58,817 bases of DNA from Clostridiales bacterium (GTDB lineage Bacteria; Bacillota; Clostridia; Christensenellales; UBA1750). Both the position numbers and the translations under genes were made by a program. The notes beneath the pieces were generated by a model. The model was given only the letters and a program-made list of their open reading frames with translations. It made no database searches and was not told the DNA's origin. Where the stretch lies: contig SVHB01000004.1 of the NCBI GenBank assembly GCA_015056005.1, forward strand, positions 1-58,817, in the 5' to 3' direction. Of this stretch, positions 13,566-44,925 are shown one piece after another; within the stretch, counting starts at the first letter, position 1, and every line of letters begins with the position of its first letter.

Positions 13566-14106
13566 TTATGCTTTTTTTGGGAGAAGGCTTTGCCTTCTCC
13601 CAAACCCATCAGCTATCAGGGGGGGATGTTCGAGATGGCTGCGCCCTCTCGAGCTCTGGGCCCAGAGGATTGCATCCTCTGGACTCCGCGGCTGTTTGGT
13701 TGAGTAATTGAATACGTTGGCTTACGCGTTGCCCGTAAAGTGTGGGCAACGCGTGATTGCTTTTAAGGACGGTTATGCGATGGAGGTTTGGACAGCCCAT
13801 CGTCCGTTTCTGTTTTGCGAGAGCAAATTCTAACAGGGTCAGAGTATTTTGCGTGCGCGGATTATGGGTATGTGAAATTTATGACGGCTGGAGAATTGGT
13901 TGGTTTAAAAAGAAGGAAAAGTCGTTTCGCGCACATATCGCACGCCGAAGGCGCATATCGCTCACCGAAGGGGAATATCGCTGCCCGAAGGGGAATATCG
14001 CTGCCCGAAGGGGAATATCGCTGCCCGAAGGGGAATATCGCTGCCCGAAGGGCAATATCGCTTCCGCGCAAGCGGAAATATCGCTGCACTGTAAGTGCAA
14101 TAATGC
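13566..14106 (+). repeat. mosaic hairpin element, locus R1 (one arm plus array cargo; boundaries approximate)
   Basis: hp1a GGGAGAAGGC/GCCTTCTCCC at 13579-13601. hp1b TCGAGA..TCTCGA at 13630-13652. pal2 CCAGAGGAT-TGC-ATCCTCTGG at 13662-13682. CCGCGGC box. hp3 GCGTTGCCC-GTAAAGTGT-GGGCAACGC at 13726-13752. GTATTTTGCGTGCGCGG box near 13843. ATATCGC-hairpin array at 13935-14106. Confidence 0.85.
13966..14065 (+). repeat. 20-nt tandem repeat inside R1
   Basis: CGAAGGGGAATATCGCTGCC occurs four times without change (13966-14045), followed by one diverged unit. Confidence 0.95.
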
Positions 14107-15805: not shown

Positions 15806-16366
15806 GGGGATGGGGAGACGTTTTTTGAGGAAGGGCTTTCAGCCCTCCCTCAAACTCCCTCCCGACCAAGGGATTGCATCCCTTGGAACCCGCGGCATTT
15901 TGGGATCAGGAATGTTATGCTTTTGCGTCGACGTGGCCGTAAAGGGTGGCCACGTCGAAAATAGCAAAGCGCTTATTCAAAAAGGGTCGGAGTATTTGAC
16001 CCAAAGCCTAACTCTCCTAAAAATAAATCATGCGTGACCCACGAGGCGGTCGTGCGGAGCGCGACCGCCAATGATATACGCCTTGCGGCGTGTGATGAAT
16101 GATATATTCCTGCGGAATATGATATATGCGCTGCGCGCACATGATGGTTAGTAACCACCCAACCGTCTAACTCTCCTAAAAATAATTCACGAGTGGCCCA
16201 TACCTGCCGGGCCACTCGTAAGCTGAAGTATGAAATTCCTCAATCCAAAAGCTGCGGGATCCAAGGGATGCAATCCCTTGGTGGATGAGGGTTTGGGAGA
16301 AGGCGAAGCCTTCTTCCAAGAAAGAGAGCTCGAGAGGGCGCAGCCATCTCGAACGTACCCCCAAAA
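15806..16366. repeat. mosaic hairpin element, locus R2 (composite of a forward partial copy and reverse copies)
   Basis: Forward arm: hp1 15827-15851, pal2 15866-15886, hp3 15930-15956. Reverse arm: hp3 16191-16217, pal2 16261-16281, hp1a 16295-16317, hp1b 16330-16352. ATGATAT-variant hairpin array at 16071-16146. A truncated hp3 half lies at 16032-16040. Confidence 0.85.
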
Positions 16367-36808: not shown

Positions 36809-36896
36809 AATGCGGAGGTATATTCGCGTTGCGGGTTCAATGAACCCAAATCCGTTCCCCAAGAACTAACTTAATTGAAAAAGAGACTTGATTTAG

Positions 36897-37065
36897 GTGA
36901 AATATCCTTTGGATGTGAAATAATGACCTGCGGTCATTGTGAAATTTGATGCTTTGCATCAAGTGAAATGAAATAAATCCGCTCACGCCCGCATGCATTT
37001 CACACGCCGCAGGCGTATTTCACGCACGAAGTGCATTTCACAAATCCCGCAAGGGATTTATTTCG
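36897..37065. repeat. solo array of six small hairpins separated by GTGAAAT (left half) or ATTTCAC (right half)
   Basis: 7-mers at 36897, 36915, 36939 and 36963 (GTGAAAT) and at 36997, 37017 and 37035 (ATTTCAC). Hairpins at 36904-36914, 36922-36938, 36946-36962, 37004-37016, 37024-37034 and 37042-37059. Confidence 0.85.
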
Positions 37066-37068
37066 TTG

Positions 37069-37112
37069 AAAAGAAAAACCTTTTGCCCGATGGACAAAAG
37101 GTTTTTCTTTTC
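37069..37112. terminator. bidirectional rho-independent terminator (tRNA-Asn and XRE transcripts)
   Basis: 15-bp stem AAGAAAAACCTTTTG / CAAAAGGTTTTTCTT (37071-37109), T-rich on both strands. Confidence 0.8.
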
Positions 37113-37187
<75 letters not shown>

Positions 37188-44337: not shown

Positions 44338-44925
44338 GCTTTTTGTGGGGGTTTGTTTTTTGGGGAAGGGTTTCACCCTTCCCCAAACCCCATCTGACCA
44401 GAGGATTGCATCCTCTGGACTCCGCGGCATTTGGGATCAGGGAATTTAGGCTTTTGCGTCGACGTGGCCGTAAAGGGTGGCCACGTCGAGGATGGCTGAG
44501 TGCTTATTCAAACAGGGTCAAAGTATTTTGCGTGCGCGGATTCCTCGTTCGCGAAATTTATGACGGCTGAAGAATTGGTTACTCTGATAAGCCGCAAAAG
44601 CCCTCTCGCGCACATATCGCAGCCGAAGGCTATATCGCGCGCCGAAGGCGCATATCGCTGCGCCAAAGGCGCAATCTTTCCACGCCGGCATTGGCTGCCG
44701 CAGCATAACCCTCTTCCATATACCGCGAATCCCATCCCACTGCCTGACCCTCCTGAAAATAAATCACGAGGAACCCATACTTTACGGGTTCCTCGTAGGC
44801 TAACGTATAAAATTACTTGATCAAAAAGCCGCGGGATCCAAGGGTTGCAAACCCTTGGTCAGGTGGGTTTTAGGGAGGGCTGAAAGCCATCCCTAACGTC
44901 TCCCTAACGTCCCCCTCGTCTCCCC
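44338..44925. repeat. mosaic hairpin element, locus R4 (complete copy with both arms)
   Basis: Left arm: hp1 44362-44384, pal2 44398-44418, hp3 44461-44487. Cargo: GTATTTTGCGTGCGCGG box and ATATCGC array at 44614-44673. Right arm: hp3 44768-44794, pal2 44838-44858, hp1 44872-44894. Confidence 0.9.

Follow-up and report, generated by a model that had tools for sequence, protein, structure and literature searches.

Within the 58.8-kb window (the whole stretch of DNA analysed, 58,817 nucleotides), a ladder of short hairpins lies between two convergent genes: a tRNA-Asn with its own promoter-like TTTACA-17-TATACT (37262–37234) and a small XRE-type helix-turn-helix gene (Table 1). The neighbouring genes of the locus are ordinary chromosomal genes. 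Direct reading and a script check find the seven heptamers, four GTGAAAT and three of the reverse complement ATTTCAC, exactly where the sequence-only reading had put them, and all six of its perfect hairpins between the heptamers were re-found. A degenerate ACGAAAT on the opposite strand adds an eighth heptamer, making the arrangement 4+4. These sites are unusually dense, with 7 of the 17 GTGAAAT sites of the window packed into 145 nt at the array, and the 17 observed compare with 8.15 expected for the whole window from a dinucleotide shuffle. Heptamer spacing is irregular (18–25 bp) and every spacer is a palindrome; the hairpins inside the one array are mutually unrelated, and the heptamer alone is constant.

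The array is formed by two opposed arms. Arm 1 has the orientation of the tRNA and comprises, in order, ACGAAAT, a P1 hairpin (AAATCCC-TTGC-GGGATTT) and three GTGAAAT heptamers with two hairpins between them; arm 2 is antisense and distal to the tRNA. An 11-bp closing helix between GAAATAAATCC and GGATTTATTTC, whose complementarity had already been noted from the sequence, encloses arm 1; GGATTTATTTC lies one base further right than first placed. The bidirectional terminator named in the sequence-only reading is a terminator-like hairpin, for which RNAfold gives a 21–22 bp stem within 45 nt, with A- and T-runs on both strands; a consensus terminator scan does not list it. Terminator, arm 1 (sense), closing helix and arm 2 (antisense) together occupy 216 nt. 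A paralogous copy on another contig of the genome, C52, is 90% identical to window positions 36897–37115, including a homologous terminator with one compensatory change in its stem, and the homology ends at the tRNA and at the first heptamer, so the repeated unit is 36897–37112, terminator included. The array is a separate module with its own terminator-like hairpin and no stray piece of the larger 'full elements' described below; the XRE gene is its neighbour, outside it.

Table 1. Positions of features at the array locus (window coordinates) and of the paralogous gene units (contig coordinates)
Feature	Position	Strand	Basis or remark
XRE-type HTH gene, 66 aa	36608..36808	+	Pfam HTH_3, E 9e-15; convergent with tRNA
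Module	36897-37112		216 nt
Arm 2, tRNA-distal	36897..36969	+	4 GTGAAAT (ATTTCAC in tRNA orientation), 3 perfect hairpins between
Heptamer GTGAAAT, 4 copies	starts 36897, 36915, 36939, 36963	+	direct read, script check
Hairpin ATCC-TTT-GGAT	36904-36914		perfect
Hairpin AATGACC-TGC-GGTCATT	36922-36938		perfect
Hairpin TTGATGC-TTT-GCATCAA	36946-36962		perfect
Central segment	36970..36996		closing-helix distal strand GAAATAAATCC (36970-36980) and short G+C-rich stretch
Arm 1, Gut-1 motif proper	36992..37068	-	same orientation as tRNA; Rfam RF01706
Heptamer ATTTCAC, 3 copies	starts 36997, 37017, 37035	+	direct read, script check
Hairpin ACGCC-GCA-GGCGT	37004-37016		perfect
Hairpin GCAC-GAA-GTGC	37024-37034		perfect
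Hairpin AAATCCC-GCAA-GGGATTT	37042-37059		perfect
Closing-helix proximal strand GGATTTATTTC	37054-37064		complement of GAAATAAATCC
Degenerate eighth heptamer ACGAAAT	37060-37066	-	
Bidirectional intrinsic-terminator-like hairpin GAAAAGAAAAACCTTTTG...CAAAAGGTTTTTCTTTTC	37068..37112		RNAfold; flush with tRNA CCA
tRNA-Asn, anticodon GTT, encoded CCA	37113..37187	-	ARAGORN; Rfam tRNA 70.3 bits
PF05635 and NUDIX-like gene unit behind a tRNA	C52:1-657	-	paralogous unit
PF05635 and NUDIX-like gene unit behind a tRNA	C90:19450-20131	-	paralogous unit
PF05635 and NUDIX-like gene unit behind a tRNA	C99:12135-12900	+	paralogous unit

Identity with the Gut-1 family

Arm 1 matches the Rfam family Gut-1 (RF01706) across the full model (positions 1–77, 76.6 bits, E 1e-15; gathering cut-off 50 bits). 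Arm 2 falls under the cut-off (36895–36974(+), 43.9 bits), and an ATATCGC array of the window reaches 51 bits (14010–14086(−)). Both arms and this second array thus match a single Rfam model, in agreement with the common grammar that had been proposed for them from the letters. A further sub-threshold match (16069–16130(+), 45.3 bits) lies inside a 'full element', in addition to the arrays of the window at 13935–14084 and 44614–44658. The features that define RF01706, three variable hairpins separated by GUGAAAU with covarying stems, are all found, and stem sequences vary among paralogues and species with their pairing kept. A scan of the genome for three successive perfect hairpins with 7 nt between neighbours, leaving the heptamer free, recovers almost only GTGAAAT and GCGATAT arrays, so the grammar is no chance pattern.

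Gut-1 was described in one line as a human gut metagenome sequence and probable non-coding RNA (Weinberg et al. 2010, Genome Biol 11:R31, PMC2864571), and has stood in Rfam since 2010 without a function. The window copy shares with it the habitat of uncultured gut Clostridia. The published family models one arm, as an sRNA (Rfam type 'Gene; sRNA'), whereas the second arm and the closing helix are absent from it, as are the terminator included in the module, its placement directly against tRNA and tmRNA genes, the scarcity of G-U pairs and the PF05635 neighbour; the flanks of the Weinberg seed sequences already hold the opposed AUUUCAC arm. The hairpin ladder is a gene-less copy of this catalogued and still unexplained repeat of gut Clostridia. 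For the window alone that is a modest result, one more gene-less copy; for the family, the two-armed form makes it testable, through its position at tRNA and tmRNA ends, the absence of G-U pairs and the heptamer-matched PF05635 proteins.

Copies behind tRNA and tmRNA genes

The Rfam model returns 61 Gut-1 matches in the genome and our own scanner 60 arrays, of which about 48 are single-arm GCGATAT arrays inside 'full elements' of ~0.5 kb. The genome has five to seven dimers, most of them directly behind a same-strand tRNA gene. Convergent GTGAAAT dimers occur on contigs C10 (the window copy), C52, C26 and C61 and across the ends of C43 and C88, so the array is not the isolated terminator region that it might have been. 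Dimers of this class lie behind tRNA-Asn, tRNA-Ala(cgc), tRNA-Ser(gct) and a tRNA 3' fragment; at C61 the dimer instead lies behind the 3' region of a NUDIX gene. Two dimers with other heptamers, ATGATAT on C29 and GTGATGC on C90, lie behind tRNA-Leu(gag) and tRNA-Arg(ccg), and C95 holds a single-arm GTGAAAT array with no tRNA link. At tRNA-linked dimers the order is constant: tRNA-CCA, terminator, arm 1 (Rfam sense), closing helix, arm 2 (antisense). The inverted dimer first noticed at this one locus is thus an architecture that recurs in the genome and across the order. A broader rule, that every array follows a co-directional gene, was rejected, since a rough ORF heuristic finds such placement for only 34 of 50 single-arm GCGATAT arrays; it is strict only for tRNA-linked dimers.

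The C26 dimer sits behind its tRNA 3' fragment beside an integrated element. The tRNA-like sequence there (C26:9000–9550) is a 3' fragment only and abuts a small excisionase-like HTH ORF, which suggests integration of a mobile element in the tRNA, with displacement of both the tRNA 3' end and the Gut-1 module. At the window locus, five metagenome contigs with the same XRE protein show no strain-level variation across the array; two of the five end inside it. Contig ends fall often in arrays, as in the metagenome contigs L291 and L292 from this locus and at ends of C43, C88, C52 and C61. Variants in the central segment of L292 resemble the C52 copy, reflecting either confusion of the paralogues by assemblers or sequence exchange between the copies.

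Across species (one genome per species), we searched for the conserved arm-2 unit ATTTCAC-TTGATGC-N3-5-GCATCAA-ATTTCAC. The TTGATGC stem with its partner GCATCAA was found in at least 118 stretches from other species, all of them gut or rumen Oscillospirales MAGs. Upstream sequence is long enough to judge in 86 dimers: a tRNA on the same strand precedes 53 of them, ending 127–144 nt before arm 2 in 50 cases, and none has one on the opposite strand. Twenty anticodons are represented among the tRNA-linked dimers of other genomes, and at 67 of the 86 dimers the junction reads CCA followed directly by GAAA. An association with tRNA genes, for which the sequence-only reading had proposed a search, is thus very strong both in this genome and across species. 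Many dimers that lack a same-strand tRNA lie behind tmRNA 3' ends or tRNA 3' fragments; at L183, L200, L208 and L235 the module is flush behind sequence resembling a tmRNA 3' end (GGACAGGGGTTCGA, TCCCCTC and CCTCCACCA in that order, then GAAAA). Placement therefore tracks tRNA-like CCA ends generally, beyond tRNAs. Sampling 151 genomes of the order, from 96 genera, finds Gut-1 in 23 of the genomes and 16 of the genera; its distribution is patchy between genera, and where present it is usually multicopy.

Other non-coding elements of ~190–430 nt, sometimes in tandem, occupy tRNA 3' ends (Ser, Pro, Gln), for example G000 C42:19377–20120, C58:23915–24130 and C88:105–260 and loci L015, L017 and L024. 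They carry their own terminator, an inverted T-arm-like box and a conserved GACCGTCC-GGTG-GACGGTC hairpin, and close with a 17–21 nt direct repeat of the tRNA 3' end. An Rfam search of the small elements beside arrays returned Gut-1, tRNA and an unrelated TPP riboswitch only.

PF05635 proteins linked to the arrays

At 9 of the 102 dimers with enough downstream sequence (a sample chosen by arm-2 sequence), arm 2 is followed at a fixed offset, on the tRNA strand, by a gene of ~115 aa from PF05635, the '23S rRNA intervening-sequence protein' family, whose four-helix bundle is related to PDB 2RLD, an entry of five chains. The genome holds four such genes, on C52, C90, C99 and C34. The first three lie behind tRNAs and are each followed by a NUDIX-like gene (NUDIX read from the translation). 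The C52 gene (C52:313–657(−); Pfam PF05635, 89 bits; PDB 2RLD, E 5e-22) stands directly behind the 90%-identical GTGAAAT dimer, the C90 gene behind the GTGATGC dimer and the C99 gene behind tRNA-Cys and a hairpin-less TTCAC/GTGAA repeat. Behind arm 2 of the window copy there is the 3' end of the convergent XRE gene and no same-strand PF05635 gene; given its presence at the C52 paralogue, the window copy is the non-coding half only. A literature search on PF05635/TIGR02436 returned nothing on tRNA-linked arrays.

The family itself is known from S23p of 23S rRNA intervening sequences and from Avd of diversity-generating retroelements (DGRs). Like Gut-1, a 23S rRNA intervening sequence is a hairpin-rich, structured non-coding element tied to a stable-RNA gene, and complete Gut-1 copies such as C52 encode a protein of the same family beside them. 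The intervening sequences, however, lie inside the 23S rRNA and the Gut-1 element behind tRNA and tmRNA genes, and S23p/Avd systems encode their protein whereas the window copy has no protein gene.

In the 151 genomes, which include non-independent relatives, Gut-1 and PF05635 occur together in 15, Gut-1 alone in 8 and PF05635 alone in 13; as related genomes are not independent, we give no p-value for this co-occurrence. The genome with the best-scoring dimers, G128, is among the 8 Gut-1-positive genomes with no PF05635 match. A same-strand tRNA lies upstream of 11 of the 30 PF05635 genes of the order sample, and at least 18 of the 30 are preceded by heptamer arrays or short tandem repeats, each with its own motif. 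Where the gene is present, the repeats end at its promoter-like −35/−10 region. At L293, L304, L306 and L318 the PF05635 genes lack hairpin arrays but have locus-specific short tandem repeats just before the start codon; these include GAAGAGTTG seven times over and runs of AATGCAG, GGAATTC and GTTGAAA.

In a maximum-likelihood tree of 41 PF05635 proteins (L308 was left out as a mis-picked ORF), the six heptamer classes with at least two members each fall into a supported clade of their own. Different host families are mixed within the clades, and one genome may contain several. The heptamer labels require 6 changes on the tree, the minimum possible, versus 14.1 when labels are shuffled. Protein and array therefore travel together as lineages; from this correspondence we infer that the protein may bind the heptamer of its own lineage.

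Stems, transcription and competing explanations

RNAfold predicts very stable structures for both strands (z about −8.8). In the minimum-energy structure the opposed heptamers are paired, giving the long hairpin-studded helix that had been imagined from the sequence. The heptamers are invariant within a locus, which makes a covariation test of their pairing impossible there, and the sole evolutionary support for the long helix is that the heptamers of the two arms always match between loci (GTGAAAT/ATTTCAC, ATGATAT/ATATCAT, GTGATGC/GCATCAC, GTGATAT/ATATCAC and ATGAAAT/ATTTCAT). Pairing would explain this match, but so, no less well, would shared descent or a shared binding protein. The closing helix, by comparison, is conserved and covaries across loci, with 29 sequence variants that mostly keep 10–11 Watson–Crick pairs of 11. 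Stem pairs in this genome number 797 Watson–Crick, 5 G-U and 9 A-C; unique hairpins across species give 369, 8 and 11 for arm 1 and 682, 17 and 10 for arm 2, so that neither this genome nor the other species shows an excess of G-U over A-C in stems. Selected RNA normally tolerates G-U far more than A-C, and that the two are equally rare here argues for a constraint at the level of DNA or of both strands. When the closing helix is read in the direction of the tRNA, G-U is somewhat commoner than A-C. With no clear asymmetry in the stems and a weak one in the closing helix, we abandoned the attempt to name a functional strand from these counts. The loops are strand-biased (GAA, GCA and GCAA/GTAA, hence GNA/GNRA, on the ATTTCAC strand). 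At other loci the third hairpin of arm 2, CGTGAGCG-(GNRA)-CGAACG, retains a tandem G.A/A.G mismatch between covarying pairs; the feature, seen in the tRNA orientation, is specific to that strand, and the window copy has no such hairpin. Loops and tandem G.A features of this kind are stable not only in RNA but also in single-stranded DNA.

These features bear on whether Gut-1 is a structured non-coding RNA, as its Rfam entry has it. The transcript could arise by read-through of the terminator in the tRNA direction or as an XRE-side 3' UTR that ends at the shared terminator, fold into local hairpins with the closing helix or into a rod with GUGAAAU:AUUUCAC pairing, and either stabilise RNA or act as a sponge that takes up an RNA-binding protein, perhaps that of PF05635. 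The Rfam match with its covarying stems, the stability of the predicted folds, the loops and conserved tandem G.A on one strand, the closing-helix G-U bias and the fixed polarity relative to the tRNA all favour an RNA, as does the precedent of Avd, a relative of PF05635 that works with a structured RNA in DGRs. Against it, G-U makes up only ~1–2% of stem pairs, unusual for selected RNA, and the antisense arm would be unreadable, on one and the same transcript, to an RNA-binding protein that recognises GUGAAAU. Transcription is a further difficulty. A strong predicted bidirectional terminator stands between the tRNA and arm 1, and the far flank is unrelated from locus to locus, or is the promoter of the four-helix-bundle gene, so that no conserved promoter reads the array in either direction. 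No terminator-like site separates the XRE stop codon from the array, and the XRE transcript probably runs through the array to the shared terminator, as the sequence-only reading proposed; its position in an XRE 3' UTR is nonetheless probably an accident of this locus, as the far flanks differ elsewhere. The upstream terminator, the lack of a conserved promoter and the lack of G-U enrichment are indirect signs that point away from an expressed sRNA, and we rank this explanation third and consider it improbable.

Somewhat less doubtful, though still unlikely, is a selfish origin, in which the module would be a REP/REPIN- or MITE-like non-autonomous DNA that targets tRNA 3' ends or terminators, is spread by some enzyme and has no host function beyond termination, the PF05635 and NUDIX genes being passengers. 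Its multicopy, patchy occurrence, near-identical paralogues behind different tRNAs, the 20 tRNA identities with junctions exact at CCA, contigs that often break inside arrays and the other small elements with direct repeats at tRNA 3' ends in the same genomes would all follow. REP, BIME and REPIN elements (the RAYT-associated repeats of Proteobacteria) are likewise intergenic, multicopy and built from a short conserved motif and a hairpin; like Gut-1, they are often arranged as inverted pairs at the 3' ends of genes, and recognition as single-stranded DNA is presumed for both. REP/REPIN copies, however, share their palindrome, whereas here only the heptamer is shared and hairpins differ from unit to unit, and the tRNA-linked dimers stand instead behind tRNA genes with fixed polarity. 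The RAYT-type Y1 HUH transposase (PF01797) that might mobilise them has no match in this 94%-complete genome, whereas the same search recovered the family in 6 of 14 control genomes. The module ends lack terminal inverted repeats, and our search found neither a target-site duplication nor a mobilising enzyme. Integrase-type insertion was rejected also: the genome holds no second copy of the tRNA-Asn 3' end and no direct repeat of the tRNA-Ala or tRNA-Arg 3' ends. Strict conservation of heptamer and stems across families implies selection on structure, and the strain-level contigs are invariant. No match was returned by a blastn search of the module in 50,697 phage records, so a phage origin was dropped; where IMG/VR contigs match it, the matching sequence is a host tRNA flank at a prophage end. 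Far less probable than either alternative is an elaborate terminator or insulator of the tRNA-Asn/XRE pair with no partner in trans. The position between convergent genes and the strong bidirectional hairpin would suit it, but termination requires neither invariant heptamers nor a closing helix, and the module is found again behind 20 kinds of tRNA, where the genes on its other side are unrelated.

Positions 36897–37112 are most likely an orphan copy of a conserved two-armed Gut-1 module that sits behind tRNA and tmRNA CCA ends in Oscillospirales. As to mechanism, the reading that we rank first, and hold tentatively, is that the array is a DNA-level platform of heptamer sites for a PF05635 protein. 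The module has a bidirectional terminator-like hairpin of its own, an arm 1 in which four sense heptamers alternate with three hairpins inside the 11-bp helix, and an arm 2 with the same alternation of four antisense heptamers and three hairpins. Complete versions are followed by a gene for the small PF05635 four-helix-bundle protein and often by a NUDIX hydrolase gene. On this proposal the array would act as duplex DNA or as transiently single-stranded palindromes, its heptamers being sites for the PF05635 protein of the matching lineage. For the window copy that protein would be supplied in trans from C52, behind the 90%-identical array, and the module would here also provide the terminator that separates tRNA-Asn from the convergent XRE gene. 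Iteron and operator arrays and the arm-type sites of integrases likewise consist of short identical motifs, direct and inverted, near a tRNA 3' end or a promoter; here, by contrast, the spacing is irregular and every spacer palindromic, and no replication initiator or integrase gene is linked to the array among its neighbouring genes. Readings of GTGAAAT as parS half-sites, DnaA boxes or −10 elements were discarded, as these motifs misfit the sequence or the heptamer varies between loci. Against the platform, the agreement of heptamer class and protein clade could be mere co-inheritance of linked DNA, the gene adjoins only 9 of the 102 dimers, and 8 Gut-1 genomes have no PF05635 match. Plain duplex DNA is also hard to reconcile with the GNA/GNRA loops, the tandem G.A/A.G and the closing-helix G-U, which fit single-stranded DNA or RNA.

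A broader proposal, more doubtful than the platform itself, is that Gut-1 might be no RNA gene but instead the cis half of a novel type of cassette, in which arrays of heptamers and palindromes of free sequence would be read by a lineage-matched, pentameric PF05635 protein (probably as single-stranded or extruded DNA), with several orthogonal pairs per genome homing to the exact tRNA or tmRNA CCA end, possibly primed or guided by the tRNA 3' end. Were the link to hold, a widespread orphan protein family (S23p/Avd-like) would gain its first function, and an 'sRNA' would be reclassified as a DNA element; a matching protein and array can be obtained from one genome for binding tests.

Among the paralogous gene pairs, the NUDIX-like copies of C90 and C99 appear truncated or interrupted. 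At C90 another Gut-1 arm follows the pair, so that the genes are bracketed by arrays.
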